A DNA stretch of 39,533 nt from a virus (IMGVR_UViG_3300045988_094722), one strand, 5' to 3'; positions 6,532 through 34,176 are shown, counted from the first letter of the stretch. Notes: a model not told the origin generated them from the letters alone. Program-made: numbers and translations.

Positions 6532-6607
6532 ATTCCCGTAGCTCAAGTGATGGAGCAGCGGTCTCCAAAACCGCAGGCTGCAGGTTTGAGCCCTGCCGGG
6601 AATGCCA
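6532..6607 (+). tRNA. tRNA-Trp (anticodon CCA)
   Basis: Full cloverleaf with a perfect 7-bp acceptor. It has A1-U72 and G73 as in bacterial tRNA-Trp, anticodon arm GCGGT-CTCCAAA-ACCGC, T arm GCAGG-TTTGAGC-CCTGC and an encoded CCA. Confidence 0.9.
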
Positions 6608-13071: not shown

Positions 13072-13148
13072 GTTGCTTTCGCCTAATTGGTCAAGGCACC
13101 CGGCTCATAACCGGGCCCATGTGGGTTCGAGTCCCTCAAGCAGCACCA
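13072..13148 (+). tRNA. tRNA with CAT anticodon (Met, or Ile2 if lysidinylated)
   Basis: Cloverleaf with acceptor GTTGCTT/AAGCAGC, D arm GCCT-aattggtca-AGGC, anticodon arm CCCGG-CTCATAA-CCGGG, T arm GTGGG-TTCGAGT-CCCTC (one U.U), A73 and CCA. Confidence 0.85.
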
Positions 13149-18205: not shown

Positions 18206-20935
18206 ATGGCACAAAATCCGGATTTTGAAGTTCATGGACAGGTAACGCTCGACAATTCCGACGTCAAGCAGGTCCTTGACGACTCGCAGGCCAAGGCGGA
18301 AAAGACCGCCAAGGAAACCGGCACAAAAATCGGCGATGCGGCCGATGACGCGGCGGAAAAGGTCAAGAAAAAGAGCCAGGAGACCCGCGATCAGCTGGCC
18401 TCCGACACCAAAAAAGCCGGAAAGCAGACCGAGCAAACGGCAAAGGATACCACCGAGAAGGTCAAAAAGCAGTTTGAGGCGGGTTCCGTTGCTATCGGAA
18501 ACATTATTTCCGGGCTGGTCACAAAAATTGCCAGCGCAGGCAAAGACCTAATCAAGCAAGGCATTTCCTATAACGCCCAGATCGAGACCTACCGCACCGG
18601 CCTGACCAATATGCTGGGCGACGCGGAAAAGGCCAACACCGCCCTTGAAAACATCAAGCAGGACGCAGCCCGGACGCCGTTCGACACGGCTTCTCTTGTC
18701 AAGGCGAACCAATACCTTATCTCTGCCGGTGAGAACGCTGAATACAGCCGCAAGACCATCCTTGCGCTGGGCGACGCGGTTTCAGCCACCGGAGGCACCT
18801 CCGTCGAGCTTGAACGCATGGCGCAGAACCTCCAACAGGTCGCAAACGTCGGCAAGGCGTCCAGCGTGGATATCAAGCAGTTTGCGTTTGCAGGCATCAA
18901 TATCTATCAGGTGCTTGCAGATTATACCGGCAAGTCCATTCAGGACGTCCAGAACATGACGATCTCCTACGACCTGCTGACGAAATCGTTGCAGGCCGCA
19001 GCAGAAGAGGGCGGACGCTACTATAACAGCATGGAAACGCAGAGCGAGACGTTCAACGGCTCACTCTCCACCCTCAAGGACAACGTTTCACAGCTAGTTG
19101 GCGTACTATCATCCGAATTATCAGAAACCGTTGGTCAACTTATAACCAAAGCGAATGAGCTGACCGTGGCAATGAAGAACGGCTTCCAAACAGACGGCAT
19201 TGTCGGAATGATGAATGCCGCCAGCGAAGCCGAGCCTAAAATCTCCGGTTTGACCAATGCAATCAAATTTTGCATTGAAAACGGTTCAGCGTTAAAAATT
19301 CTGATTGGAACGCTCGTCGGTGCGTTAATCGCATATAAGACAGTGGCGACAGCTGCCACCATTGCGCAAAACTTGCTTAATGCCGCAATGAGCGCAAATC
19401 CGATTGGTATTGTCGTCGGCTTAGTAGGCGCACTTGCTGGAGGCCTGATTACAGCCTACAACAACAGCGAAACTTTCCGTTCCGGAGTCAACCATCTGAA
19501 ATCTGCTTTCGACAACCTCAAGTCTTCGATTGTTAATGCAACAAAAGCCCTTATAGGATATCAGGCCGCAACGGTGGACGACGATGGTTTTGGTGGTAGC
19601 GAGGGCGGAGAATTCACTCCAAAATCGGCCTACATCAACAAAACTACAGATGCAGAGCGAGAGAGAAGACAAAAGCTGCATGAACAGCGTGTTAGAAAAT
19701 CTCAGCTTGAACATCTAATAAGCAGTATTACAACCGGAGATGACAACGGCGGTTCCGGTGGATCTGGCGGCACGTCGCCAAATACAACAGACTCTCGGCA
19801 GGTAACAAAGACCGTCACCGACACCAAAAAGACCGTTGATGGTAGCATCAAGACCGTTACAAAAATTTTTGACGATGGAACGAAGCAGGTAACAAAAACC
19901 ACCACCAAAGCCGGAAAAGAAATGGTGGATGGGGTCGAGCGCAACGTCACCACTGTAGAGACCAAAGTTGATGAATTTGCAACCGAAACCGCAACCGTTG
20001 CAAAAAAGACCTCGACCACCGTTCAGAAAGAGATTACGGACATTGAGGAGCAGGCTGTAAAGTCTCTCCGAGAGGTCGAGAAAGAGCTGAAACAGAGCTT
20101 CACAAGCGAAACGTCGGATGGTATTCTCGGCATCCTCAAAGATGGCATTTCCAACATCAAGAATCAGGACTGGGGCGGCATTGCGCTCGACGTCGTCAAG
20201 CTGATCTGGGGCGAGGTCGATGCGGAACAACGCAAAACCGTCACCAAGTGGGCTGGCAACGTTCTCAAAGTCATCAACGACGAGTACGCAAGCGGCGGAT
20301 TGTCTAGTGTTGGAAACACCATCAAAACGCTGCTGTCCGGCGGCGAGTTGGTTCTGAACACCGAAGAAGGTGCAACGACCCTCGCTTCCATCAGCAAGAT
20401 CGTTTCTGACCTGACCGCAAGCGGCGGCATGGGCGAAGTGCTGGGCACGATGGCCACAAAACTGGGCAGTCTGTTCGGCACACTGGCCACTAAGATCGGC
20501 AGCGTCGGCACAGCCCTCAGCGGGCTGGCGACGAAGCTTGTGGGCGTGATCGCGGCAAACCCTGAGATCTTTGCCATCCTCGCCATCGTCGCCGGAGTCG
20601 CCGCCCTCGGCGCGTACATCTGGAAGAAGCACGGCAAGGAAATCAGCGGTTGGTGGAGCGGCCTTTGGGCGGATAAACCCACCGCCGCACCTGCCTCCAA
20701 CTACCAGCAGAGCGACAGCATCACCGCTGCCCGTCTGGTACAGGAATCTCAGGCCGCTGCAGCGGCCAACCAGCAGAGCACGACTCGTGTGCAGAGCGGA
20801 ACCGGAAGCGCGGCAAGCCAACAGCTGAACGCCAGCTGGCGCGGATCTTCCACCACCATCTTGAACCTGGACGGCAGAGAAGTGGCCCGCTCTACCGCGC
20901 CTTATATGGACGAAGAACTTGCATTCAGGTCGTAA
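18206..20935 (+). CDS. Tape measure protein
   Basis: 909 aa, helical and repetitive with internal TM segments, in the expected position. Confidence 0.9.
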   Translation: MAQNPDFEVHGQVTLDNSDVKQVLDDSQAKAEKTAKETGTKIGDAADDAAEKVKKKSQETRDQLASDTKKAGKQTEQTAKDTTEKVKKQFEAGSVAIGNIISGLVTKIASAGKDLIKQGISYNAQIETYRTGLTNMLGDAEKANTALENIKQDAARTPFDTASLVKANQYLISAGENAEYSRKTILALGDAVSATGGTSVELERMAQNLQQVANVGKASSVDIKQFAFAGINIYQVLADYTGKSIQDVQNMTISYDLLTKSLQAAAEEGGRYYNSMETQSETFNGSLSTLKDNVSQLVGVLSSELSETVGQLITKANELTVAMKNGFQTDGIVGMMNAASEAEPKISGLTNAIKFCIENGSALKILIGTLVGALIAYKTVATAATIAQNLLNAAMSANPIGIVVGLVGALAGGLITAYNNSETFRSGVNHLKSAFDNLKSSIVNATKALIGYQAATVDDDGFGGSEGGEFTPKSAYINKTTDAERERRQKLHEQRVRKSQLEHLISSITTGDDNGGSGGSGGTSPNTTDSRQVTKTVTDTKKTVDGSIKTVTKIFDDGTKQVTKTTTKAGKEMVDGVERNVTTVETKVDEFATETATVAKKTSTTVQKEITDIEEQAVKSLREVEKELKQSFTSETSDGILGILKDGISNIKNQDWGGIALDVVKLIWGEVDAEQRKTVTKWAGNVLKVINDEYASGGLSSVGNTIKTLLSGGELVLNTEEGATTLASISKIVSDLTASGGMGEVLGTMATKLGSLFGTLATKIGSVGTALSGLATKLVGVIAANPEIFAILAIVAGVAALGAYIWKKHGKEISGWWSGLWADKPTAAPASNYQQSDSITAARLVQESQAAAAANQQSTTRVQSGTGSAASQQLNASWRGSSTTILNLDGREVARSTAPYMDEELAFRS

Positions 20936-25287: not shown

Positions 25288-25974
25288 ATGATGGCAAAAA
25301 CTATTTTGGACGTTTCCCGCTGGCAGGGCCGCATCGACTGGGACAAGGTCAAGGCCAGCGGCCTTATCTCCGGCGTAATGCTCAAGACGGTATCCACCAA
25401 CAGCAAGCTGAGCAAACGCAAGGACGGGCTGTACATCGACCCGACGTTTGAGCACAACTATGCCGAGTGCAAGCGGCTGGGGATTCCGGTGGGCGTGTAC
25501 TACTACACCTACGCCGTCTCGCATACCAGTGCCGACGCAGAGCTTGCCCTGCTCAAAACTGCGCTGACCGGGAAAACCTTCGAGCTGCCGATCTGCGTGG
25601 ATGTGGAGGACAACAAGCTCCGCAAGCTTGGCAAGCAGGCGTTGACCGACCTGACCGCGTATGCGCTGGCGACCATCGAGCAGTGGGGCTTCTACGCTCT
25701 GCTGTACACCGGTCTCAATTTCGGTGAGACCCGGCTGTATATGGGCGGTGATGCATTGCGCAAGTACGATGTATGGCTGGCAAGATATCCCAGAGACAAG
25801 AGCAAAACCAAACCAGATGACAAGCCTAAAACAGACTTTTCTTTTGGCATGTGGCAGTACACCAGCAGCGCCAGCGTACCGGGCATCACGGGCAACGCAG
25901 ACCTTTCCCACGCTTACAAGGACTACGCCGCCATTATCGCGAAAAAGGGGCTGGACAGGCTCCGGGAGGGGTAA
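25288..25974 (+). CDS. Endolysin, GH25 muramidase
   Basis: LDVSRWQGRIDWDKVKASG..., GVYYYTYA and DVED are typical of GH25. Confidence 0.9.
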   Translation: MMAKTILDVSRWQGRIDWDKVKASGLISGVMLKTVSTNSKLSKRKDGLYIDPTFEHNYAECKRLGIPVGVYYYTYAVSHTSADAELALLKTALTGKTFELPICVDVEDNKLRKLGKQALTDLTAYALATIEQWGFYALLYTGLNFGETRLYMGGDALRKYDVWLARYPRDKSKTKPDDKPKTDFSFGMWQYTSSASVPGITGNADLSHAYKDYAAIIAKKGLDRLREG

Positions 25975-25979
25975 ACCGA

Positions 25980-26201
25980 ATGGAGAGTATCGCATCCGCC
26001 CTCATTACCGGTGCAATCACGCTGATCGGCGTTCTGATTGCCAATAGCAAAAGCCAAGCCGTGACCGAAACCAAGCTGGAAGAACTGACCAGAGAAGTCA
26101 GGGCACACAACAATTTCGCCCAGCGCATCCCCGTGCTGGAAGAGAAAATGAAGGTCGCCGATCACCGAATTGCCGACCTCGAAGAAAAGGAAAGGAACTG
26201 A
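25980..26201 (+). CDS. Holin-like protein (N-terminal TM plus coiled coil, BhlA-like)
   Basis: Internal ATG of ORF 25851..26201. N-terminus MESIASALITGAITLIGVLIANS. Confidence 0.55.
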   Translation: MESIASALITGAITLIGVLIANSKSQAVTETKLEELTREVRAHNNFAQRIPVLEEKMKVADHRIADLEEKERN

Positions 26202-26205
26202 TACC

Positions 26206-26454
26206 ATGACTAAAAACAAGATTTCCACCGGAACCATCGCTCGCACCGCCGTCCTCGCTCTGGCACTGACCAATCAGATCCTCAGCGCAACCGGCCACTC
26301 CCCGCTCCCCATAGAGTCGGAGCAGCTGGAGCAGATCATCACCACCGGCATCACCGTCGTCGCTTCCCTCGTGGCGTGGTGGGAGAACAACTCCTTCACG
26401 TCTGCCGCCATCCACGCCGATCACGTCCTCAATCAGATGCAGGGAAAGGAATAA
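26206..26454 (+). CDS. Holin, phiLC3 family
   Basis: TGTIARTAVLALALTNQIL... and VASLVAWWENNSFT are typical of the family. Confidence 0.8.
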   Translation: MTKNKISTGTIARTAVLALALTNQILSATGHSPLPIESEQLEQIITTGITVVASLVAWWENNSFTSAAIHADHVLNQMQGKE

Positions 26455-26468
26455 GGAGAAAACACATT

Positions 26469-26735
26469 ATGATTATTACCGGCATGGCAGAATATGAAAG
26501 CGTGTGCAAAAATGCACTGGTTGAGTGGTACAACGCGCACCGCGAGACCAAAATCACCCTCGAAAACGTCTTTGTGGTCTGGTCTTGCAAGACGCTCCAG
26601 AACTACAAGGCTCTACTGTCTACCACCGTGAACGGTGACGGCATCTATGCTGAGTACACCTACAACGGCGATAAGCAGGAGTTGTACGAGGATGTGTACA
26701 GCAAGCTGACCAATCGCTGCATCAAGCAGCTGTAA
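26469..26735 (+). CDS. Hypothetical protein (88 aa)
   Basis: ATG after AAGGAGAAAA. Confidence 0.7.
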   Translation: MIITGMAEYESVCKNALVEWYNAHRETKITLENVFVVWSCKTLQNYKALLSTTVNGDGIYAEYTYNGDKQELYEDVYSKLTNRCIKQL

Positions 26736-26745
26736 GGAGGATATC

Positions 26746-26985
26746 ATGGCAAGCACTACATACCACCATATCGGTGACGTTACCGGTATGTTCGCCGCAC
26801 AAGAGCAATTTCGGCACGTCACGAAAATGGTCTGCGCACGTCTTCGTGGCCTCACGAAAACATACCATTTTGCCGTCATTGGCAATATGGTGCGCAACGC
26901 TGGACAGCTGCCGCAGCCTTTCTGGCTCGGTGCTGCCTGTGGCGGCGGCTCGTGTAGTGCTGCCCGCTGCGCTGCAAGGACTTGA
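26746..26985 (+). CDS. Hypothetical protein, possibly the N-terminal half of a frameshifted regulator
   Basis: Excellent SD AGGAGG 6 nt upstream. The last 20 aa look like out-of-frame sequence. Confidence 0.5.
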   Translation: MASTTYHHIGDVTGMFAAQEQFRHVTKMVCARLRGLTKTYHFAVIGNMVRNAGQLPQPFWLGAACGGGSCSAARCAART

Positions 26986-26995
26986 CCGACAGCAG

Positions 26996-27163
26996 ATGAC
27001 CGCCGCCATCAAAAGCGCACCGCTTGGGAGGGTAGACCGTAAAATAGCCTTACTGCGGTACGTTGAGCGGCTCCCGCTGCCGGACATTGCGGCACGGACA
27101 CATTACAGCCGGACGGCGATAGGCTACCGGCTGAAAAGCATTGAAAAAATGTTAAATGTGTGA
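26996..27163 (+). CDS. Sigma region-4-like HTH peptide (55 aa from this ATG; frame open from 26774)
   Basis: HTH motif RKIALLRYVERLPLPDIAARTHYSRTAIGYRLKSIEKML. The start is uncertain. Confidence 0.45.
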   Translation: MTAAIKSAPLGRVDRKIALLRYVERLPLPDIAARTHYSRTAIGYRLKSIEKMLNV

Positions 27164-27228
27164 TATAATATTTTACGAGCTGAGTGTATGTAGGACGCAT
27201 GTTTAAGGCTGATTCTACAAACGCAACA

Positions 27229-27267
27229 AAGCGGCAGGCTATTCCAGAGCTTGCCGCTTTTCTTTTT
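27229..27267 (+). terminator. Rho-independent terminator ending the late/lysis transcript
   Basis: 11-bp stem AAGCGGCAGGC/GCTTGCCGCTT (one G.U) followed by a T-rich tail. Confidence 0.7.
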
Positions 27268-27277
27268 GCACGAATTG

Positions 27278-27385
27278 TGGTATAATATACTTAACAAATC
27301 CACCCGGCCTCTCGAAGAAGCGCATTAGGGTGGATATTTGAGAAACCCCCGGTGTCCACTGTGGACACCGGGGGCTTTTCTGTTT
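27278..27385 (+). ncRNA. Candidate small RNA (extended -10 promoter, 8-bp hairpin, terminator)
   Basis: TGGTATAAT at 27278-27286, hairpin ATCCACCC...GGGTGGAT, and the 13-bp terminator hairpin at 27346-27374. No SD-preceded ORF is present. Confidence 0.3.
27346..27385. terminator. Bidirectional intrinsic terminator
   Basis: Perfect 13-bp stem CCCCCGGTGTCCA/TGGACACCGGGGG with a 3-nt loop, a T tract on the plus strand and an A-rich 5' flank. It lies 3 nt beyond the stop of the minus-strand gene. Confidence 0.8.
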
Positions 27386-27388
27386 CGG

Positions 27389-27658
27389 TCACATATCTTC
27401 GACGGTGTAAGACACGCTGGAGCTGTCCAGCAGGTTGCCGTCCTCGTCGTACTGGTACTCAAAATCGGTATTGGTGCCGTTTGCGTAAGTAACGGCGTAG
27501 TCGATCAGATAATCGACATCATCCACCTTGTTCGCATCCAGCTCCATGTTGTAAGGGAGCTGACCAATCTCAAAGAACTCGTTCTCAAAGTCGATTCCCG
27601 TCCGGTCATCCGTCATGGAGATGCTCAGGATCTTCTTGCCGTCATAAAACTTCGTCAT
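27389..27658 (-). CDS. Highly acidic 89-aa protein (candidate DNA mimic / anti-defence)
   Basis: ORF track. 14 Asp plus 7 Glu against 4 Lys plus 1 Arg. It has its own consensus promoter and terminator. Confidence 0.8.
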   Translation of the reverse strand: MTKFYDGKKILSISMTDDRTGIDFENEFFEIGQLPYNMELDANKVDDVDYLIDYAVTYANGTNTDFEYQYDEDGNLLDSSSVSYTVEDM

Positions 27659-27774
27659 TGCTTGTTCCTCCGTTTATTTTGTGTTCCTTACCGCGATTTA
27701 ATTATAGCACAAAAGAATCATTTTTGCAATATAAAAACGCAAAAAAGATTCTGATTTGCAAAAATATTTTTGAA
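27656..27774 (-). repeat. 119-bp promoter/5'UTR repeat, copy A
   Basis: 114/119 identical to 30098..30216, from the start codon upstream. Confidence 0.95.
27701..27729 (-). promoter_or_regulatory. Consensus sigma70-type promoter (TTGCAA-17 nt-TATAAT with TGC extension)
   Basis: -35 at 27724-27729 and -10 at 27701-27706 on the minus strand. The left arm of the 10-bp inverted repeat ATTTTTGCAA/TTGCAAAAAT overlaps the -35. Confidence 0.7.
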
Positions 27775-27807
27775 GAAAGCCCCCGGCACTGATGTCATGC
27801 CAGGGGC
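27772..27807 (-). terminator. Terminator of the three-gene minus-strand operon
   Basis: Stem GCCCCTGGCA/TGCCGGGGGC (one mismatch) followed by TTTCTTCA on the minus strand. Confidence 0.6.
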
Positions 27808-27812
27808 CTGTC

Positions 27813-28247
27813 TTATTTCAAATATTCCCGGATCGCGGCAAGGATCAGGTCGTTTCTGTTGCACTTTTCTTTTTCCATCCGCTCCGTGAGCTTTTGCGCA
27901 ACTGCGGCAGGGATGCGGACCGTCGCCTGGACATCCTCGGCTGCACCCGGCTCGCCAAAGATCATCTCGTATTCGGTCCCATCCAGATGCGCTTCTGCCC
28001 ACTTGCGGGCGTCATCTTCCTCCAGCGGAAGAATTGATTCGCCGCTGGACCACTCGTTGACCCCGATCTGTTGGCTGTACTTGCTCCCGGCTCCGCCGTA
28101 GCCGTACAAAAAATAGTTTCCGGCCTTGTTCCGGTAGAGGATCTCTTCCTCGTGGTAGAGACCGCGATAGTCCTGATCGGACTCCCAGTATCCCAATTTC
28201 TTCGCGGTCTCCGTGTTGTAACGGCGGTTATTGATTACCTTGTACAT
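27813..28247 (-). CDS. 144-aa protein with C-terminal ribbon-helix-helix domain
   Basis: SD AGGAGG 6 nt upstream. C-terminus ATVRIPAAVAQKLTERMEKEKCNRNDLILAAIREYLK. Confidence 0.8.
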   Translation of the reverse strand: MYKVINNRRYNTETAKKLGYWESDQDYRGLYHEEEILYRNKAGNYFLYGYGGAGSKYSQQIGVNEWSSGESILPLEEDDARKWAEAHLDGTEYEMIFGEPGAAEDVQATVRIPAAVAQKLTERMEKEKCNRNDLILAAIREYLK

Positions 28248-29655
28248 TGTCGTCCTCCTGCTTTTGCTTCAAAATTTCTTCCCGTGCGGCCGAGGCCTCG
28301 GCTACCGTATCATACAAACCACAATACTTTCCATCCAAAACGAGCTCCCATTTCCCGGTCTTTGGATGTAAATGGATACCGGGGATTCCAGATTGCGGGT
28401 TGACAGGCCCTCGCGGTCCCAGCAGCCGAATGGGTTTTGCTCGCCCGGCGTTGACCTGCCCTCTGACGTTGTTTCGCCGCAACTGCTCAGCGGCACAATC
28501 AGCTGAGCACACAGATGTGCACGTAGGACTGTCAAAAGTCTTGCCACAAATCACGCAAACACGTCTTTCTTTTCGCATTTCGCGGTAATGCTCGTTAAAT
28601 CGTTCCCTGTTTTGGTCCATGTACTCCCGCTTGTGCTCCCGAATGTTATCTGCGACCACATATTTTGAGCAGTCGGGGCAATAACGCTGTAAACCAGAGG
28701 TCACGATATACGGTTTCCCGCAGTGCTGGCAAATGTCCGTACTGCCGATCTCGCGGACTTTTCCGGCTTTTTTCCGCTCTTTGCATCGCTTCGCCGCTTC
28801 TACCTTTGCGGCTTTTTGACATTCGGGGCAGTATTTTGACCGAGGATACCCCAAAAAAGTGACTCCACATGTTGCACAGATGCGGTTCTGATACACACCG
28901 GTTTTGCGGTTTTCCTCCGCACATTTTGGGCAAAGGTAGCTATCGTTTGATTTGGTCCAGTAGACTTCGCCGCATTTTTTGCACTTGCGGGGGACAAGGC
29001 CCTTATGCGCCTCTCTTTCGCTCTCCATTTTGGCAATTGCAGAGGCATTTTTTAGAGCATTTACAACATCATTATTTTTTGCATCTTTTCCGCAGCCCTT
29101 GTATTCGTTAGAGTTTTTCTTTTTTTTCGTCTGTTCGTCTTTTTTCTTTTGCTTGCATGTCGGACAATATTGACTGTTTGGGCCACCATCAAATTTGATT
29201 CCACAAATTTTACAGGTTCGAAGCGTTTTTGTGGACCTCTGACATGTGCATTTGACATTTCCTCTCAGAATGTAACTTCCTGTCATTATTTTTTCTTTTC
29301 CGCACAAGTTACACCGCGTAGTCCACAAATAGTGTTTATGACCGGATTTTGTTACTCTGAATCCGGCTGGGCCAATTACTGTAATTTGACCAAAAACCTT
29401 CCCTGTAATGTCTCCCGGTTCATTCAATCGTTCGTGATAAAGATGAGCTCGCCCAATTTTCGACTTACAACCACAGCTTGTTACATTCCCACCTGTAAGC
29501 TGTGATGTTCGCACCGTAATTTCGTTTCCGCAATCGCATTTGCAGACCCAGGCTCTCTCGGAAGTTCCACGCGGAAAAATATGTGGTTGTCCTTCGCATA
29601 AAACTGTTAGAGCCCCAAAACGCTGACCTGTAAGGTCCTTTCGAGCTCGGCTCAT
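28228..29655 (-). CDS. 475-aa zinc-ribbon-array protein with C-terminal AP2-type DNA-binding domain
   Basis: Start moved to ATG 29655 (SD AGGAAGGAGA 8 nt upstream). It has two LTGxxFGxLTV...CGC modules, five CxxCG...CxxC ribbons and the AP2 motif GIPGIHLHPKTGKWELVLDGKYCGLYDTVAEA. Confidence 0.85.
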   Translation of the reverse strand: MSRARKDLTGQRFGALTVLCEGQPHIFPRGTSERAWVCKCDCGNEITVRTSQLTGGNVTSCGCKSKIGRAHLYHERLNEPGDITGKVFGQITVIGPAGFRVTKSGHKHYLWTTRCNLCGKEKIMTGSYILRGNVKCTCQRSTKTLRTCKICGIKFDGGPNSQYCPTCKQKKKDEQTKKKKNSNEYKGCGKDAKNNDVVNALKNASAIAKMESEREAHKGLVPRKCKKCGEVYWTKSNDSYLCPKCAEENRKTGVYQNRICATCGVTFLGYPRSKYCPECQKAAKVEAAKRCKERKKAGKVREIGSTDICQHCGKPYIVTSGLQRYCPDCSKYVVADNIREHKREYMDQNRERFNEHYREMRKERRVCVICGKTFDSPTCTSVCSADCAAEQLRRNNVRGQVNAGRAKPIRLLGPRGPVNPQSGIPGIHLHPKTGKWELVLDGKYCGLYDTVAEASAAREEILKQKQEDDNVQGNQ

Positions 29656-29680
29656 TACTTGTTCTCCTTCCTCATGGCAT

Positions 29681-30100
29681 TTATGCCATGCAATCGCCAT
29701 AGCAGTAAGTGTGGCAGCGGGGGCACAGGCCGCGGATCGCGGTCACACTGGGGCGGCGCTCAAAGACGCGGGCAACCTTGGTCATGACCTCGATGGTCTT
29801 GGTCTTCTTGTCGTAGCTGCCCTCAACGGTCTGGCAGTTGCTGTACTCGTTTTTGTACTGAGAGTAGTGCATCCGGACGACACCGGCGGCTTCGCGCTTA
29901 GCGGCCTCCACTGCTGCACGCTTGGCAGCTTCGACGGCTCTTTCGGCAGCAGCAGCGGCTTCCTTGGCAACGGTCTTTGCCATGTTCCATGCCTTTTTCA
30001 AAGCGCTGGCAAAGATCACTTCGGACCCATGCCCGGCCTTCGCATTCCGGAAGATTCTCCATGCGTTGTTCATGATGTCGTGCAGATTGTACTTTTTCAT
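29681..30100 (-). CDS. 139-aa protein, helical Ala/Glu-rich centre, Cys-rich C-terminus CPRCHTYCYGDC
   Basis: ORF track. It is the first gene behind promoter repeat copy B. Confidence 0.8.
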   Translation of the reverse strand: MKKYNLHDIMNNAWRIFRNAKAGHGSEVIFASALKKAWNMAKTVAKEAAAAAERAVEAAKRAAVEAAKREAAGVVRMHYSQYKNEYSNCQTVEGSYDKKTKTIEVMTKVARVFERRPSVTAIRGLCPRCHTYCYGDCMA

Positions 30101-30216
30101 TGTTCGTTCCTCCGTTTATTTTGTGTTCCTTACCGCGATTTAATTATAGCACAAAAGAATCATTTTTGCAATAGAAAAGCGCAAAAAAGATTCGGATTTG
30201 CAAAAATATTTTTGAA
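30098..30216 (-). repeat. 119-bp promoter/5'UTR repeat, copy B
   Basis: 114/119 identical to 27656..27774. Confidence 0.95.
30143..30171 (-). promoter_or_regulatory. Consensus sigma70-type promoter (copy B)
   Basis: -35 TTGCAA at 30166-30171 and -10 TATAAT at 30143-30148 on the minus strand, with 17-nt spacing. Confidence 0.7.
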
Positions 30217-30496
30217 AATCAATCCTAGAGCGGAACAAAACAATAAACTTTTTGTGCTATTTGCACTGGTTTTGTCGAAAGTCTTGCTGTGCAAACGAAA
30301 ACGTGATATTTTATTCTTGCTTCTAAAGTGAAGCCCTTAACAGTTAAGCGCTCATGCGGCTTTGTGCCGTGTGGGCACTTTTCTTTTTTGCTTAAAATAA
30401 TCAAGCTTTAATCAAGCTTTTTGTCCTTCGTTGTGTCTTCGTTGTCTCTCGTTTTCTTCCGGTACGGTACACTGGGAGCAAAGGGAGGGGAGTGCA

Positions 30497-30955
30497 ATGT
30501 TCAAATTCGACCCTTACACGGGAAAACCGATTCCTCAACGTACCGGCTATAACTGGGGCTGGGAACCGCAGGAAGCGTATCAGCAGGCACAACAGCAACA
30601 GGAGCCTTCCACGCCGTGGACAATGGTTCCTTGTCTGGCAGATGTGGATAAGGTGAGCGTCCAGCCTGGCGAGACGAAGTGGATCATGGTTCAGTCTGAC
30701 CCGATTTTTGCGGTCAAGACAGCGAACGCGATGGGATACGCCCCGGCTGAATACTACCGCTTCGAACAGATCGACCCGGCGGTATTGGCTGCCCCTGCAT
30801 CTGTGCAGGCTTCGCAACAGCTCACACGTGCGGACGTGGAGAAAATCGTGGAAGATAAAGCGCAAGCGCTGATTTCGCAATATGGTGCAGCTCTTGCATC
30901 GCAGGCACCCGCCCAGACGTCCGCAAAAGCAAAGAAGGAGGTAGCACATGAGTAA
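30497..30955 (+). CDS. Cargo operon gene 1, hypothetical (152 aa, Gln-rich N-terminus)
   Basis: ATG after GGGAGGGGAG; internal start of ORF 30431..30955. Confidence 0.7.
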   Translation: MFKFDPYTGKPIPQRTGYNWGWEPQEAYQQAQQQQEPSTPWTMVPCLADVDKVSVQPGETKWIMVQSDPIFAVKTANAMGYAPAEYYRFEQIDPAVLAAPASVQASQQLTRADVEKIVEDKAQALISQYGAALASQAPAQTSAKAKKEVAHE

Positions 30956-31283
30956 TCCTTTGGCTGGCCGCTTCGGCGCACAGCAAGCCCCACAGGCGAC
31001 ACAGGGGAGCGGCCTGATGGCAAGGCTTCCAGGCGCGATAAAGCAGGCATCCAAGATGATGGCTGTCATCAAGGCGGCGCAGAACCCACAGGCAGCGCTT
31101 ATGGACTACTGCAAGAAATCCGGGGCCTTTAATGGTTACACCGGTCCACAGGACCCCGAAAGCATGACCCGCTGGTTGTGCGAAAGAAACGGGATCCCGG
31201 TGGATGATATTCTCAATATGGTTCAGAGCCCAGGTGCACAGGGGCTCGGAAATAAACTCACAAAACTTTTGAAAGGTGGCTAA
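30948..31283 (+). CDS. Cargo operon gene 2, hypothetical (111 aa)
   Basis: ATG after GGAGG, with an 8-nt overlap with gene 1. Confidence 0.7.
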   Translation: MSNPLAGRFGAQQAPQATQGSGLMARLPGAIKQASKMMAVIKAAQNPQAALMDYCKKSGAFNGYTGPQDPESMTRWLCERNGIPVDDILNMVQSPGAQGLGNKLTKLLKGG

Positions 31284-31286
31284 ACT

Positions 31287-31910
31287 ATGGCTATGGATGA
31301 CTCTATGGGCTTCGGTGGCGGCGGCATCTGGATTTTCGGGCTGCTCGTGTTGCTGGCCCTTTTGCTCGGCGGCAATGGCAATGGCCTGTTCGGTGGAAAT
31401 CGCGGCCCCATGTTCCCGCCCAATGTGGCAACGTCCGGCGACGTCCAGCGCGCAACCGATTTTGCAGCGCTGGAACGGCAGAACAACGAGGGCGTGTCGG
31501 CGACTCGACAGGGCGTCTATGATGTTGCCGCAGCTGTAAAGGATGGCAACTACAACATTCTCGGCGAGCTGCGCGACCTCGAAAGCGCTTCCAACGCTGG
31601 TTTTGCACAGCAGCAGGTGTGTTGCTGTGAGACCAACCGCAACATTGACTCTGTCCGCTACGACATGAGCAACTTTGCGGCCGCGATCAAAGAAAACCAG
31701 ACCGCAGGAATCCAGAAGGTACTGGATCAGCTGGCAACCAACCGTTACAGTGATCTGGAACGGGCTTACAACCAGCAGAGCACGCAGTTTGCGATTCAGC
31801 AGGCTGTTTGCGGCATTCCCAAGACTTCCCCCTATGCCTATCAGCTGGCCCCCACATGGGGCCCGGCTCCCGGATACGGCCCCGGTCCATGCTGGGGCAA
31901 CGCAGCCTGA
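31287..31910 (+). CDS. Cargo operon gene 3, membrane-anchored protein with Gly-rich TM segment and CCC motif (207 aa)
   Basis: N-terminus GFGGGGIWIFGLLVLLALLLGGNGNG, and a C-terminal Pro/Gly/Trp-rich tail. Confidence 0.75.
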   Translation: MAMDDSMGFGGGGIWIFGLLVLLALLLGGNGNGLFGGNRGPMFPPNVATSGDVQRATDFAALERQNNEGVSATRQGVYDVAAAVKDGNYNILGELRDLESASNAGFAQQQVCCCETNRNIDSVRYDMSNFAAAIKENQTAGIQKVLDQLATNRYSDLERAYNQQSTQFAIQQAVCGIPKTSPYAYQLAPTWGPAPGYGPGPCWGNAA

Positions 31911-31943
31911 TAGGTTATAAAACCTCGCTATAACAGCGCATAG

Positions 31944-31975
31944 CCCCCACGGCAAACGCTGTGGGGGTCTTTATT
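31944..31975 (+). terminator. Rho-independent terminator (possibly partial) inside the cargo operon
   Basis: 10-bp stem CCCCCACGGC/GCTGTGGGGG (one G.U), loop AAAC, then TCTTTATT. Confidence 0.6.
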
Positions 31976-31994
31976 ATGAAAGGAGTATCTTATT

Positions 31995-32444
31995 ATGATG
32001 AACTGCATGAAAAACCCGCACTACAAGAGCGCGGTGGAAAGTTACAACACAGCCACCCAGGCACTCACAACTACGCCCGCTCCGCTTGGTCTGACCGGCA
32101 CGGTGCTCACAAACACCGGCGTTTCTCTTGATCCGGAGCAGGCAGCTGTAAAAATCAACAACAGCGGCCTGTACAAGGCAGACGCGAACATTCAGGCGCT
32201 GGCAAGTGCTGCAGGCGACATCGTGATTGCGCTGTATCTAGATGGAGTTCTGCTGCCCGAAACACAGCGCACGGTGACTGCGGCCGCCAGCGCTACCGTT
32301 TCGCTGACCACTGACATGCTCCGGAGCGTTCCATGCAACTGCAATACCCACACACTGCAACTCTATGGATGGGTCATCGGTACCGCTGCTGCAAACGTCA
32401 CATTTGCACAGCTGGCTGTGGTCAAAGAAGCGGGGAGGGCATAA
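31995..32444 (+). CDS. Cargo operon gene 4, BclA-C-terminal/C1q-TNF-like beta-sandwich protein (149 aa)
   Basis: The pattern SGLYKADANIQAL...IVIALYLDGVLLPET...LQLYGWV...AQLAVVK resembles exosporium BclA C-domains. This call is from memory only. Confidence 0.6.
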   Translation: MMNCMKNPHYKSAVESYNTATQALTTTPAPLGLTGTVLTNTGVSLDPEQAAVKINNSGLYKADANIQALASAAGDIVIALYLDGVLLPETQRTVTAAASATVSLTTDMLRSVPCNCNTHTLQLYGWVIGTAAANVTFAQLAVVKEAGRA

Positions 32445-32447
32445 CCC

Positions 32448-32786
32448 ATGATGGACGAAACGAAGCTGGCCGGTTGCAAGCGGACTCTCATACAGGCCGC
32501 AAAGCAGATGGCAGAAGAGTACAGCGACGCGATGAACTACGCAGACTTTGCGGTTGAGTATAAGTCTGTGTGCCCGTCGGCTGCCTCCGAATGGTACAAG
32601 CTTTCCGGCGACGAAATCGAGCACGCCGAAATCAACTCCCGCATCGGACAGAAGGTGCTTTCCATGGTCGAAACAGAAGATGCTGCAGCAGCGGCAGACC
32701 TTCGCAGCATGTGGGCGATGGCGGAAGAACTGGTTTCTGGTCTTCACGAAGCCGTCACAAAGCAGCGGGCGGCGTATGTGAAATAG
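32448..32786 (+). CDS. Cargo operon gene 5, helical hypothetical protein (112 aa)
   Basis: ATG after GGGAGGG. Confidence 0.7.
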   Translation: MMDETKLAGCKRTLIQAAKQMAEEYSDAMNYADFAVEYKSVCPSAASEWYKLSGDEIEHAEINSRIGQKVLSMVETEDAAAAADLRSMWAMAEELVSGLHEAVTKQRAAYVK

Positions 32787-32860
32787 TGTTCCTTTATTTG
32801 TTCCTTTATCACAAGTATTCAGGATAATCTACGTTGTTTTTAGGTTTGAATTAAAAAGAA

Positions 32861-32906
32861 AAGCGGCAGAATTTCTCAAAAATGAGACGTTCTGCCGCTT
32901 TATTTT
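32861..32906. terminator. Bidirectional intrinsic terminator
   Basis: Perfect 11-bp stem AAGCGGCAGAA/TTCTGCCGCTT, with a T tract downstream and an A tract upstream. Confidence 0.75.
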
Positions 32907-32955
32907 GGAGCAGGATACGGGACTCGAACCCGCCGCCTACTGCTTGGGAAGCAAG
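32906..32955 (-). other. attP core: 3' 50 nt of a tRNA-Gly(CCC) gene (anticodon stem-loop to CCA)
   Basis: The minus strand reads CTTGC-TTCCCAA-GCAGT AGGCG GCGGG-TTCGAGT-CCCGT ATCCTGC-T-CCA. There is no D arm or 5' acceptor, and it lies 30 nt from the 3' end of int. Confidence 0.75.
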
Positions 32956-32985
32956 AAAAAACAGCGACAAAACGAGAAAATGTGG

Positions 32986-34176
32986 CTATTTGTTCTCTTT
33001 TTGTTCCTTTACATACTTGAACTTTTTCATCTCTTCGGCCAGATAATCGGCGCTGTGGGCGGTGTAATAGTCCGCCGTAGTGGTGAAATCGGAGTGGCCA
33101 AGAATGGCCTGTACGGCAGTCGGTTCTGCCTTGCCTTCCACAAGGCGGGTCGCAGCGGTTCGGCGAAGAGAATGCGGGGTGACGCGCTTTTCCTTCGGCG
33201 TGTCGGGCCTGTTGATCTCGCAGACTTCCATCATCCGGCGGAAAGAATGCTCGACCGTGTTCACGTCCTTCTTGCGCCCGTTGGCCGTTGGGAGCAGATA
33301 CTCGCTGCCCAGGCTATCCAGCATCCAACCGGCCAGGATGGTGCGGATGGGGTCGAGAATTGGAATCATTCGCTGACGGCCTGCATCGGTCTTTTCGCCG
33401 CCGATCAGATACCCGGCATCCAGATGCACATCATCCCGGCGCATGGAAAGCAGTTCATCAATGCGCATCCCAGTATAAACCAGCACAATGGAAAATTGAG
33501 CGGTAAAGCGGAACCGGTTGTTTTTGCTGCGATCATCGGCAAGAGCCTGAATCTTGGCAATCTCTTCGTCTGTGAGGGTGCGTTCTTTTTTGGGCGGGGG
33601 AGCGGGAAGCTTCAGCCCCTCCGCATAGTTTGTCGAAATGATATCGTTCTGCATGGCCCACTTGCAAAGCTGGCTGAAGAGCTGCCGTTGCTTCTCACAG
33701 GTGCTTCGCGAAAGCCCGTCCTCGGCCAGCTCAGTGATGATCTTTTGATAGTCCTCGGTCTTCAGCTCCCGCATTTCGCAGTCCCAGAGGGAAGAGGCCT
33801 TTGTATATGCCTGCTCGTAGCTGTACCGGCCATTTTCACCCACTTCCTTGAAATGCACAGCATTCCATCGTTCATAGACATCCTTGAAAGTGTACCGCAT
33901 CCGCGCGACGCTCGAATGTTTGGCGTTGTACTCGTCCAATGCGATGACCGCTTCGGATGACGTGGCGAACATCCCCAAAAGCTCCCCTTTGCCCGTTCTG
34001 GCCATCCACGGGCGGGATCTATGGGAGTCGGTCAATTTTCGCACACTGCCGCTGCCCTTTGGGCGGCGGCGCTTTTTTCTTTGCGCGGGCGGTGCGGTCT
34101 CCGGCTGACGCTTGCCACACCATGGGCAGAATGCAGCGCCGTCCGGGATCTCTCGCTTGCATCTGATACAGTTCAT
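32986..34176 (-). CDS. int: Tyrosine integrase with N-terminal zinc ribbon
   Basis: The R...HSLRRT...LGHS...Y catalytic pattern, and N-terminus CIRCKREIPDGAAFCPWCGK. Confidence 0.9.
   Translation of the reverse strand: MNCIRCKREIPDGAAFCPWCGKRQPETAPPAQRKKRRRPKGSGSVRKLTDSHRSRPWMARTGKGELLGMFATSSEAVIALDEYNAKHSSVARMRYTFKDVYERWNAVHFKEVGENGRYSYEQAYTKASSLWDCEMRELKTEDYQKIITELAEDGLSRSTCEKQRQLFSQLCKWAMQNDIISTNYAEGLKLPAPPPKKERTLTDEEIAKIQALADDRSKNNRFRFTAQFSIVLVYTGMRIDELLSMRRDDVHLDAGYLIGGEKTDAGRQRMIPILDPIRTILAGWMLDSLGSEYLLPTANGRKKDVNTVEHSFRRMMEVCEINRPDTPKEKRVTPHSLRRTAATRLVEGKAEPTAVQAILGHSDFTTTADYYTAHSADYLAEEMKKFKYVKEQKENK

Follow-up and report, generated by a model that had tools for sequence, protein, structure and literature searches.

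What does a block of genes transcribed against the late genes of a gut temperate phage do for the phage that carries it? Faecalibacterium is among the most abundant human gut commensals, and immune evasion by its temperate phages is, to our knowledge, largely unknown. We analyzed a window of 39,533 nucleotides (the whole stretch of DNA under study), which we infer to come from a Lugh-like temperate phage with Faecalibacterium as its host. The first-pass annotation had singled out a trio of genes, called g1, g2 and g3 here, as its best candidate for an undescribed system, with a layout that pointed toward defence, exclusion or host reprogramming. Our preferred reading, to which we give a probability of roughly 0.6, is that the genes instead form a mosaic anti-defence locus of the anti-CRISPR type.

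Two transcription units and their candidate operators

The three genes lie on the minus strand, with a TTGCAA-17-TATAAT promoter ahead of them and a strong hairpin behind. Downstream is a second transcription unit, in which a further gene, g4, follows a 94% identical copy of the promoter, so that the unit exceeds the 27772-30216 originally noted. The features are as follows.

30143..30171 (-): promoter P1, TTGCAA-17-TATAAT with an extended -10 TG, driving g1-g2-g3 (10/12 in a consensus scan, plus the TG)
30157..30214 (no strand): candidate operators at P1, an inverted repeat and a palindrome
29681-30100 (-): g1, 139 aa, pI 9.7, candidate inhibitor
28228-29655 (-): g2, 475 aa, pI 9.4, 35 Cys, CapR-CapR-(zinc ribbon x5)-AP2
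27813-28247 (-): g3, 144 aa, predicted Aca-like repressor of both promoters
27773..27814 (-): T1, terminator of g3, a hairpin of -27.1 kcal/mol (z = -5.9) followed by UUUCUUC
27701-27729 (-), or 27701..27772 with its operators: promoter P2, in the second copy of a 126-nt repeat, preceding g4
27389-27658 (-): g4, 89 aa, pI 4.05, 21 D+E against 5 K+R, candidate acidic inhibitor
27340..27380 (no strand; + in the terminator scan): T2, terminator of g4, a bidirectional hairpin of -33.3 kcal/mol (z = -7.4)

The antisense three-gene operon with its own promoter and terminator, the gene sizes of 139, 475 and 144 aa and the 20-nt overlap of g2 and g3 are thus as first described. The g2 frame also opens at an earlier ATG at 29700, which would give 490 aa (28228-29700, minus strand), while the ATG at 29655 has a GGAGAA Shine-Dalgarno sequence and is the start called for database cluster P0001 (96% identical). 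The extent of the locus had been seen only in part, as the trio was correctly outlined but the duplicate promoter and g4 with its own terminator were overlooked. Likewise, of the proposed location between the lysis genes and attP, the lysis side holds, the locus being adjacent to the lysis genes and opposite to them in strand, but since five plus-strand genes (30431-32786) separate the g1 promoter from the integrase (32986-34176), the unit is not immediately beside attP. The difference in composition on which the first-pass annotation had drawn is present but modest, with a GC content of 0.48-0.52 in the gene block compared to mostly 0.51-0.60 elsewhere in the window, and the region at 23-25 kb is lower still (0.39-0.45). 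The moron-like layout is borne out, in that the genes form a self-contained block that runs against the late genes and lies within a temperate phage's accessory region, and FP_Lugh, a related phage whose portal protein is 73% identical, has no counterpart of it.

The two promoters lie in the two copies of a 126-nt direct repeat (27649-27774 and 30091-30216, 94% identical), one in each. At P1, the arms of the inverted repeat are GAATCTTTTTTGC (30193-30181) and GCAAAAATGATTC (30169-30157), the right arm overlapping the -35 element and the spacer, and the palindrome CAAAAATATTTTTG lies beside the promoter at 30201-30214. Both elements recur at P2, the inverted repeat at 27751-27739 and 27727-27715 and the palindrome at 27759-27772. 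The pattern CAAAA-N3-8-TTTTG occurs seven times in the window against 0.79 expected, an approximately 9-fold enrichment; four of the seven fall within the two promoter copies, and the other three fall at start codons, those of a small ORF, a tape-measure-like ORF and the endolysin. In a relative whose g3 is 60% identical (L001), a perfect 18-bp inverted repeat of other sequence occupies the equivalent position in both promoters.

Domain composition of g2

As the first-pass annotation had reported, gene 2 contains two modules of the form LTGxxFG...CxCxC/CxxC...CxC and five zinc ribbons. The former are CapR domains, and the protein is built as follows.

29461..29637 (-): CapR domain 1, Cys 53, 55, 57, 76 and 78 in the spacing CxCxC-x18-CxC
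29236..29412 (-): CapR domain 2, CxxC-x17-CxC
28492..29223 (-): zinc-ribbon array, five zinc ribbons alternating with helices
28234..28404 (-): AP2 domain, three strands and a long helix

The ribbon cysteines are 163/166-179/182, 240/243-257/260, 275/278-291/294, 324/327-341/344 and 382/385-398/402, and the array is supported by Pfam DZR_2 (2.1e-7), invariant Cys columns and the secondary-structure elements of an AlphaFold2 model. The Pfam AP2 model gave no direct match to g2. The earlier assignment of an AP2-type C-terminal domain is nonetheless backed by hhalign against the AP2 domains of CapR-AP2 proteins, a reference set with two Pfam PF00847-positive members (probability 95.9%, E 5e-9), and by a beta-beta-beta-alpha arrangement at the C-terminus in AlphaFold2 (strands 442-444, 451-455 and 458-463, helix 466-489).

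The combination of CapR and AP2 is the domain pair that defines the CasPRs (CasPRIB1, CasPRIB2 and CasPRIIA1), phage anti-CRISPRs that bind DNA within the coding sequence of cas8b or cas9 and obstruct RNA polymerase (bioRxiv 10.64898/2026.02.23.707548). When compared by pairwise BLASTP to a Listeria CasPRIB1-like protein (L106) whose gene adjoins AcrIIA1, CapR domain 1 of g2 was 44% identical (E 7e-10), CapR domain 2 matched at E 6e-5 and the AP2 domain was 26% identical (E 0.002). The preprint recognizes CasPRIB1 homologs by BLASTP E <= 1e-4 and >= 70% query coverage; g2 covers 67% of this proxy, in segments split by the zinc-ribbon insert of ~270 aa, and would probably fall outside that definition in a search at database scale. 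The AP2 arginines R138 and R149 are required for activity, with conservation reported among Listeria members only (bioRxiv 10.64898/2026.02.23.707548). The equivalent of R149 is kept in g2 (R473) and that of R138 is Leu. We describe g2, which fits the published definition by domains, as a predicted CasPR-like DNA-binding protein.

The g2 family varies in domain content, with members of 490, 382, ~330 and 196 aa. Its conserved core is the zinc-ribbon array, which also occurs as a stand-alone 196-aa protein; most members lack CapR, AP2 or both, and domain content changes drastically between near-identical phages.

Neighbouring genes and their exchange among relatives

In the g1 protein, an N-terminal helical module is followed by an Ala/Glu helix that varies, a beta-rich domain conserved in the middle and a Cys tail that is invariant (C126, C129, C133 and C137), the sequence ending in ...CPRCHTYCYGDCMA. 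The NCBIfam model AcrIIA3_fam was matched by all 25 of the g1-family members tested (best E 4.2e-12), all below the cutoff and over profile positions 1-~60 of 119, that is, the N-terminal half only. By itself, g1 scored 17 bits against the 70-bit cutoff of this equivalog (NF033948), with no full-length match, and the top listed score among nine family members scanned singly was 33 bits, also under 70. A profile search gave 505 representatives of the g1 family, and g1 is found elsewhere with quite different partner genes, such as a canonical CasPR-like protein with two CapR domains and AP2, an HTH protein and an Arc-like ribbon-helix-helix (RHH) protein (L036-38).

We found no match for g4 in Pfam, NCBIfam, PHROG or PADLOC searches. 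Its paralogs in four relatives (L007, L008, L015 and L029) lie between g1 and g2. In L001, the gene downstream of g3 encodes a 66-aa AcrIC5 homolog (79 bits, E 2e-22; Pfam cutoff 27) and stands behind a second copy of the g1 promoter of that phage, which is the slot of g4. A second AcrIC5 homolog, 54% identical to the first, takes the slot of g1 in a Faecalibacterium MAG (L060), directly upstream of g2-like and g3-like genes. No protein in the window matches AcrIC5 (PF22147) at the 27-bit Pfam cutoff, and none reaches a curated anti-CRISPR threshold; the partners of g3 in the window are candidate inhibitors only.

The start of g3 lies within g2, to which it is translationally coupled, and its product has two parts.

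27948-28247 (-): N-terminal beta-rich domain of g3, ~100 aa, uncharacterized
27816-27932 (-): C-terminal RHH domain of g3

That gene 3 ends in an RHH domain had been proposed before and is supported by NCBIfam YlcI/YnfO (YlcI_YnfO_N, 4.6e-7), by Pfam RHH_1 in homologs (27.9 bits in that of L007) and, in the PDB profile search, by CopG as the top match, followed by RHH antitoxins. The structure model (mean pLDDT 87) gave no significant match in the PDB, and in BFVD at E <= 0.001 nothing beyond two uncharacterized viral proteins. On the basis of its RHH domain and the operators described above, g3 is a predicted Aca-like repressor of P1 and P2.

Co-occurrence of the three genes, proposed earlier as a check, is seen in many related phages but is not obligate. 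Together g2 and g3 form the conserved core, and cargo is exchanged around a constant g3; one relative (L029) has an additional pair made up of a small acidic protein and an HTH protein. Among 66 phylogenetically diverse genomes with a g3-family gene, a Zn/AP2 gene is adjacent in nine, with unrelated backbones included and hosts spanning Faecalibacterium, Lachnospiraceae, Acutalibacteraceae, Anaerococcus and Gastranaerophilales, and is absent from the neighbourhood in the other 57. Since g1 swaps partners and g2 occurs as several domain variants, a cohesive three-component system is not supported.

Interpretation and comparison with known systems

The first-pass annotation held that family knowledge assigned no function to the trio. 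Our findings differ, and g2's CapR and AP2 domains, the AcrIIA3 match of g1, the AcrIC5 neighbours in relatives and the Aca14-like layout make counter-defence, rather than defence, the probable direction of the locus. Nor is the system wholly undescribed, since the CapR and AP2 pair already defines the CasPRs. In an anti-defence locus of this kind, the two units would share a duplicated strong sigma-A promoter carrying inverted-repeat operators. We propose that g2 may act as CasPRs do, attaching to specific DNA sites within host defence genes (cas genes being the likeliest) and blocking their transcription, mainly during lysogeny. The product of g1 would be a basic, Zn-binding candidate inhibitor whose N-terminal module is common to AcrIIA3, and unit 2 would contribute g4 as a small, very acidic candidate inhibitor. 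After an initial burst, g3 would assemble into dimers at the inverted repeats and repress P1 and P2 in the manner of an Aca protein, specifically the RHH regulator Aca14.

The same genes can be read in other ways. The lysogen-compatible orientation and the separate promoter and terminator would also suit a superinfection-exclusion or competitor-silencing moron, in which g2 binds to genes of mobile elements or other phages and represses them, g3 regulates the operon and the lysogen benefits. The CapR of PLE represses the ICP1 capsid operon (PMC8096241), competitor silencing is mentioned as a possible role by the CasPR authors (bioRxiv 10.64898/2026.02.23.707548), and the DNA-binding modules of g2 far outnumber those of characterised CasPRs. 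We nevertheless consider a silencing moron unlikely, since the neighbours are anti-CRISPR in kind (AcrIC5 homologs and an AcrIIA3-like module), g1-g4 matched no PADLOC defence component at E <= 0.1, and no effector or toxic domain was found. Alternatively, g2 and g3, which are both predicted to bind DNA and form a translationally coupled, conserved core, might control the phage's own genes (the divergent cluster at 30431-32786, or late or lysis genes), with g1 and g4 as unrelated accessories; the three palindromes on start codons outside P1 and P2 would fit such a role. It is quite improbable given that the region is missing altogether from FP_Lugh, that drastic domain variation of g2 among near-identical phages would be unusual for an essential regulator, and that pairs of g3-family and Zn/AP2 genes also occur in unrelated backbones.

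Gene 2 as a homing-endonuclease accessory protein had been named in advance as a finding that would count against the original proposal, and this applies in part, since CapR and AP2 are DNA-binding modules of homing endonucleases. All PHROG matches of g2 are to 'HNH endonuclease' families through CapR and AP2 (phrog_374, 1.6e-23; phrog_1271; phrog_99, 5e-4), and tblastn with g2 matched phage genes annotated as HNH endonucleases. That g2 is merely the decayed or domesticated, nuclease-less remnant of an HNH or GIY-YIG enzyme with no organismal function is, though, very improbable: Pfam and PHROG revealed no nuclease domain or remnant in it, the ORF is intact and 96-99% conserved over many contigs, and it has its own strong promoter, predicted regulation and translational coupling to g3. 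Least credible is that g3 is the RHH antitoxin, and g1 or g2 the toxin, of a toxin-antitoxin or abortive-infection module. RHH domains are common in antitoxins, including the next-best PDB profile matches of g3, but the RHH of g3 is C-terminal rather than N-terminal, no toxin family was matched in Pfam, NCBIfam or PADLOC, and partner genes are freely exchanged.

Returning to the anti-defence reading, we note that the zinc ribbons and g3 are the conserved core, and therefore the CasPR model leaves that core unexplained. A tentative extension, which we hold as possible but doubtful, is that the core is an unrecognised two-gene module, in which a g3-family protein (a beta-rich N-terminal domain with or without RHH) is coupled in translation to a multi-zinc AP2 protein of either the CapR type (CasPR-like) or a new zinc-ribbon-array type. 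The N-terminal domain of g3 could then be a dedicated partner or modulator of the silencer, giving g3 a role beyond repression of the operon; the zinc-ribbon-array proteins could make up a second class of anti-defence factors that silence transcription, with targets maybe beyond CRISPR; and g1 could represent a new, widespread inhibitor family. For new inhibitor families, the locus offers concrete candidates in g1, g4 and the zinc-ribbon core.

Among known systems, the CasPRs are similar to g2 in several respects. The Cys spacing of CapR domain 1 equals that of CasPRIB1, whose cysteines are C33, C35, C37, C56 and C58 (bioRxiv 10.64898/2026.02.23.707548); two CapR copies are present, as in CasPRIB2 and CasPRIIA1, with AP2 in the same protein; and g2 is likewise a Bacillota prophage gene, placed in an accessory locus near the lysis genes where relatives carry acr-family neighbours. 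Unlike in CasPRs, CapR and AP2 are split by the zinc-ribbon array, although CasPRs tolerate additional DNA-binding modules, such as the four HTH domains of CasPRIB2. If g2 is CasPR-like in action, silencing of defence-gene transcription would extend to gut Clostridia and to a much larger multi-zinc architecture.

Both CapR modules of g2 also align to the AP2 protein CD1801/phiCDHM13 gp27 (E 2e-11; CapR domain 1, as the best-scoring segment, at E 8e-12), and the C. difficile acr-locus AP2 protein matched by g2 is 92% identical to phiCDHM13 gp27. This 'AP2 domain protein' is the anchor of the C. difficile AcrIB2 locus (PMC10732046). Its gene lies directly after the endolysin, beside small uncharacterized genes, and encodes two CapR modules and a C-terminal AP2 domain as in g2, but at 214 aa the protein lacks the zinc-ribbon array, and a g3-like gene does not adjoin it. 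AP2-domain genes from acr loci of Clostridioides prophages did not detectably inhibit the type I-B system of C. difficile (earlier work as cited in bioRxiv 10.64898/2026.02.23.707548). In its first description, CapR repressed phage capsid genes, and its signature in PLE is CxxC...CxC (PMC8096241). The PLE CapR of Vibrio cholerae is the same Zn-dependent, homing-endonuclease-derived DNA-binding module put to use as a repressor; unlike g2, it comprises one domain only, comes from a satellite and acts on a phage capsid promoter.

The candidate inhibitors resemble known anti-CRISPRs less closely. AcrIIA3, a Listeria prophage anti-CRISPR, has the ~60-residue N-terminal helical module matched by g1, but its C-terminal half is unrelated to the conserved beta domain and Cys4 tail of g1, and scores fall well short of the equivalog cutoff. 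The type I-C inhibitor AcrIC5, which is small and acidic, is like g4 in size and strong acidity and occupies the g4 or g1 slot in relatives, while its sequence similarity to g4 is undetectable.

A recurrent g3 partnership would supply a new anchor for locating, through guilt by association, the anti-defence loci of gut phages, which Aca markers from Listeria, Streptococcus and Pseudomonas may not reach. Aca14 is the first RHH anti-CRISPR-associated regulator and represses its own operon and a neighbouring one (bioRxiv 10.64898/2026.07.27.740549). Compared by domain and operator layout, g3 differs from it in the additional N-terminal domain of ~100 aa and in an inverted repeat that overlaps the -35 element and the spacer, not the -10 element. 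Like Aca14, g3 has an RHH domain, AT-rich inverted repeats overlap core promoter elements, and one operator stands before its own operon and is repeated before the next operon downstream.

Organisation of the antisense unit and its surroundings

We confirmed the three minus-strand ORFs (g1, g2 and g3), the TTGCAA-17-TATAAT promoter and the terminator hairpin where the first-pass annotation had placed them. However, the coordinates proposed for the unit were too short, since a duplicated promoter, a fourth gene (g4) and a second terminator lie beyond them. The features of the locus and its surroundings are as follows.

30171-30143, minus strand: promoter P1 of g1-g2-g3, TTGCAA-17-TATAAT with an extended -10 TG
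29681-30100, minus strand: g1, 139 aa, C-terminus CPRCHTYCYGDCMA
28228-29700, minus strand: g2, 490 aa, or 475 aa if begun at ATG 29655
27813-28247, minus strand: g3, 144 aa, with a 20-nt overlap with g2
27389-27658, minus strand: g4, 89 aa, pI 4.05, 21 acidic versus 5 basic residues
25288-25974, plus strand: endolysin
30431-32786, plus strand: five genes (174, 111, 207, 149 and 112 aa) that diverge from the g1 promoter
32986-34176, minus strand: integrase

The internal g2 start at ATG 29655 has a Shine-Dalgarno sequence, and the same start is called in a 96% identical protein cluster (P0001). Folding placed a terminator hairpin (-27.1 kcal/mol, z = -5.9) with a short run of U behind it 3' of g3, and another at the end of g4 that is its own (-33.3 kcal/mol, z = -7.4). 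Through a direct repeat of 126 nt (27649-27774 and 30091-30216, 94% identical) the promoter recurs together with its 5' UTR and start; the second copy drives g4, and this duplication brackets the g1-g2-g3 cassette. Since these direct repeats flank a cargo that is mosaic in relatives, our findings suggest that the cassette may be exchanged or deleted via homologous recombination at the promoter repeats.

Each promoter copy contains an inverted repeat of 13 bp (GAATCTTTTTTGC / GCAAAAATGATTC), with its right arm lying over the -35 element and spacer, and a palindrome (CAAAAATATTTTTG) upstream of it. In the related locus L001, where g3 is 60% identical, a perfect 18-bp inverted repeat occupies the same position in both promoters with a differing core (GACTC versus GAATC). 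The window has 7 occurrences of CAAAA-N3-8-TTTTG where 0.79 are expected, and 4 of these fall within the two promoters. The other three (1152-1167, 18212-18227 and 25295-25308) each sit at or just past a start codon, namely those of a small ORF (ATG 1156), a 909-aa tape-measure-like ORF (ATG 18206) and the endolysin (ATG 25288/25291); these could be chance products of Met-Ala-Lys/Gln codons or extra binding sites. An RNA motif of the type used by Aca2, an anti-CRISPR-associated regulator (Aca), was ruled out, since the shared 5' UTR was unstructured on folding. An Rfam search of 26000-33500 returned only a chance miRNA match, on the promoter palindrome. Distal to g4, a near-consensus plus-strand promoter (TTGAAA-17-TATAAT with TG, 11/12) lies within 27141-27260 where the ORF at 26774-27163 ends, with a terminator-like hairpin about 60 nt past it (27228-27260), and a short transcript may arise from this intergenic region.

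The phage host is very probably Faecalibacterium, because the window's portal shares 73% identity with its counterpart in Faecalibacterium phage FP_Lugh and F. prausnitzii carries an annotated g1 relative (WP_097792861.1). No genes were found in FP_Lugh between the lysis cassette and the integrase-side genome end, and the window's entire 26-33 kb stretch is accessory. Among GenBank phages, the locus matched just three gut contigs at the nucleotide level, all unannotated and each over a small overlap. The five divergent genes are kept beside the locus in six relatives (L001, L002, L005, L007, L029 and L033), and in a Faecalibacterium MAG (L060) their counterparts share a strand with the g2-g3 pair. 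The sole PHROG match among the five was that of 31287-31910 (phrog_16490, unknown function), whose N-terminus is Gly-rich and hydrophobic. ARAGORN called a tRNA-Trp (6532-6607) and a tRNA-Met (13072-13148), the latter within a structural-gene ORF region.

Domain composition of the four proteins

CasPRs are phage anti-CRISPRs with CapR and AP2 domains, the CapR being Zn-dependent with conserved C33, C35, C37, C56 and C58, and some have two CapR or additional HTH domains (bioRxiv 10.64898/2026.02.23.707548). The first module of g2 (Cys 53, 55, 57, 76 and 78; CxCxC-x18-CxC) has spacing identical to the CasPR CapR, and the second reads CxxC-x17-CxC. Both modules align to the two CapR modules of the 'AP2 domain protein' of C. 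difficile phage CD1801 (E 2e-11), itself 92% identical to gp27 of phiCDHM13, which anchors the AcrIB2 locus (PMC10732046). An unannotated fragment of Listeria phage LM 4-11-1 (L106, 89-1060) encodes AcrIIA1 and then a 168-aa CapR+AP2 protein, whose cysteines follow the published CasPRIB1 numbering with a shift of three residues. g2 matched this protein in CapR1 (44% identity, E 7e-10), CapR2 (E 6e-5) and AP2 (26% identity, E 0.002).

Since the Pfam AP2 model matched neither g2 nor the clearly AP2-bearing 239-aa protein of L036, the AP2 domain was shown by profile-profile alignment, in which hhalign paired the g2 C-terminus with the AP2 domains of CapR-AP2 proteins at a probability of 95.9% (E 5e-9); two of these proteins are recognised by Pfam as AP2. 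Pfam reported only a double zinc ribbon in g2, and five zinc ribbons with invariant cysteines lie between CapR2 and AP2. Because CapR and AP2 are present and the zinc ribbons are extra, g2 falls within the CasPR domain definition as a divergent, much larger variant, one that the preprint's BLAST criterion would probably miss.

The g3 protein pairs a C-terminal ribbon-helix-helix (RHH) domain of 40 residues with an N-terminal region of about 100 residues, confidently predicted as an eight-stranded domain plus two helices (pLDDT 93-96). The N-domain is widespread, also without RHH, and occurs in haloarchaea and a methanogen virus; RHH-less copies in several haloarchaeal chromosomes and a Methanomethylophilaceae MAG (L094-L102) mark a very broad spread.

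The AlphaFold2 model of g2 (mean pLDDT 77.6) ends in the three strands and long helix of an AP2 element, within a flexible multi-domain chain (pTM 0.24). Foldseek against the PDB gave nothing significant for g3 (best PUR-alpha 3nm7, E 0.24) and was uninformative for full-length g2 (best E 0.12); against BFVD, two uncharacterized viral proteins alone matched g3 at E <= 0.001. Sequence searches with each protein and with family profiles found no PDB relative of g1, g2, g4 or the g3 N-domain.

Clustering at 90% identity divides the g1 family into at least 164 groups, and a profile search recovered 505 representatives at the 50% level; the family's only name in any source is 'hypothetical protein'. 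All 25 aligned members matched NCBIfam AcrIIA3_fam (best E 4.2e-12), but none reached the cutoff of 70 bits and the alignments stop after about 60 of the 119 positions in the profile; therefore g1 was rejected as an AcrIIA3, and the two have an N-terminal helical module in common. A literature search on AcrIIA3, in which most matches were to AcrIIA30-32, found nothing on its mechanism. The Ala/Glu helix previously described in g1 is present but is a variable insert, while the remainder combines a strongly conserved region rich in beta structure with a Cys4 tail that is invariant (C126, C129, C133 and C137). Elsewhere, for example in Flavonifractor phage Cormatin, the N-module is joined to other C-terminal domains. 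The middle beta-rich region (profile positions ~47-105) is an independent domain, since it was found alone or as 2-3 tandem copies, in proteins reaching 490 aa (for example P0320, P0338, P0357 and P0370, from the profile search).

Mosaic relatives and recurrent partners

In all related contigs examined, g2 and g3 overlap and occupy the same genomic position. Despite this constant pair, the locus is mosaic. Forms of g2 range from 490 aa (two CapR, zinc ribbons and AP2) through 382 aa (two CapR and zinc ribbons) and ~330 aa (zinc ribbons and AP2) to 196 aa (zinc ribbons only), and one relative (P0022) has the order CapR-CapR-AP2-zinc ribbons. Identity of g1 is 65-100% among phages with 95-99% identical g3; g1 is missing in L004-6 and a 105-aa protein takes its place in L010 and L016. 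In L033-35, g1 is accompanied by two unknowns and an HTH protein; in L036-38 its partners are a canonical protein of 239 aa with two CapR and AP2, an HTH protein and an RHH protein of the Arc type. The trio, whose co-occurrence in other prophages was to be checked, is therefore often found together, yet its three components do not form an obligate system.

Paralogs of g4 lie between g1 and g2 in L007, L008, L015 and L029. In L001 the second copy of the promoter precedes a gene for a 66-aa protein that scores 79 bits on Pfam AcrIC5, against a cutoff of 27, and in L060 an AcrIC5 homolog is immediately upstream of g2-like and g3-like genes. Downstream of g3 in L029 (6366-6944) is a second acr-aca-like pair, a 59-aa acidic protein then a 107-aa HTH protein, with two direct repeats in its promoter (CACTCAATGGGTG).

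Genes of the g3 family have a same-strand multi-zinc protein abutting or within ~200 nt (~330 nt in L068) in 9 of 66 diverse genomes. Several of these neighbours carry AP2. They are of CapR (CasPR-like) type in L062, L064 and L074 and of zinc-ribbon type in L042, L055, L060 and L068, with AP2 too in L042 and L055; those of L052 and L081 were picked up with the CapR-AP2 query P0048. Pairs with coordinates, each on one strand, are as follows (g3 here stands for a g3-family gene).

L062 1457-2587: g3 with two CapR and AP2
L064 2952-4092: g3 with two CapR and AP2
L074 6001-6986: g3 with two CapR and AP2
L042 6001-7156: g3 with zinc ribbons
L055 5261-6429: g3 with zinc ribbons
L068 1270-2753: g3 with zinc ribbons

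Most of these abut or overlap, in phylogenetically distant genomes, and hosts of g3/multi-zinc pairs include Lachnospiraceae, Acutalibacteraceae, Anaerococcus and Gastranaerophilales. This recurrent adjacency suggests a functional tie of the g3 family to multi-zinc DNA binders beyond this phage group.

Proposed counter-defence role and comparison with known systems

The evidence best fits an acr-aca-type locus for counter-defence. From the domain identities, operator architecture and neighbourhood shown here, we infer every activity in it: g2 would be a CasPR-like silencer, g3 an Aca-like RHH repressor acting on both promoters, and g1 and g4 candidate inhibitors. The earlier proposal of a moron encoding a defence, exclusion or host-reprogramming system is partly supported: the unit is moron-like and accessory, but its role is probably anti-defence rather than defence. 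What weakens this reading most is that the CasPR model leaves precisely the conserved core, zinc ribbons and g3, unexplained, and silencing of competing phages and an internal phage regulator are rivals. A literature search established no host CRISPR type.

A known defence system is unsupported, since PADLOC had no match to any of the four proteins. That g2 is a decayed homing endonuclease ranks low: PHROGs did return 'HNH endonuclease' families (phrog_374 at 1.6e-23 on the N-terminus, phrog_99 at 5e-4 on the C-terminus), but through DNA-binding parts only, and no nuclease domain was found with Pfam or PHROGs. CapR in a Vibrio PLE satellite is a domesticated homing-endonuclease DNA-binding domain (PMC8096241). 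A toxin-antitoxin module likewise ranks low. In the PDB sequence and profile searches, the sole matches to the g3 C-terminus were CopG and RHH antitoxins.

Rather than the undescribed system first envisaged, the locus is largely accounted for by families described in 2017-2026. CasPRs bind within the coding sequence of cas8b or cas9 and obstruct RNA polymerase, are abundant in Bacillota prophage acr loci and are active during lysogeny (bioRxiv 10.64898/2026.02.23.707548). g2 resembles them in CapR cysteine spacing, two CapR and AP2, whereas its five-zinc-ribbon array is absent from the CasPRs characterised in the preprint. Aca14, the first RHH-type Aca, represses its own promoter and that of the next operon via AT-rich inverted repeats (bioRxiv 10.64898/2026.07.27.740549), and the inverted repeats in the window's two promoters match this reported architecture.
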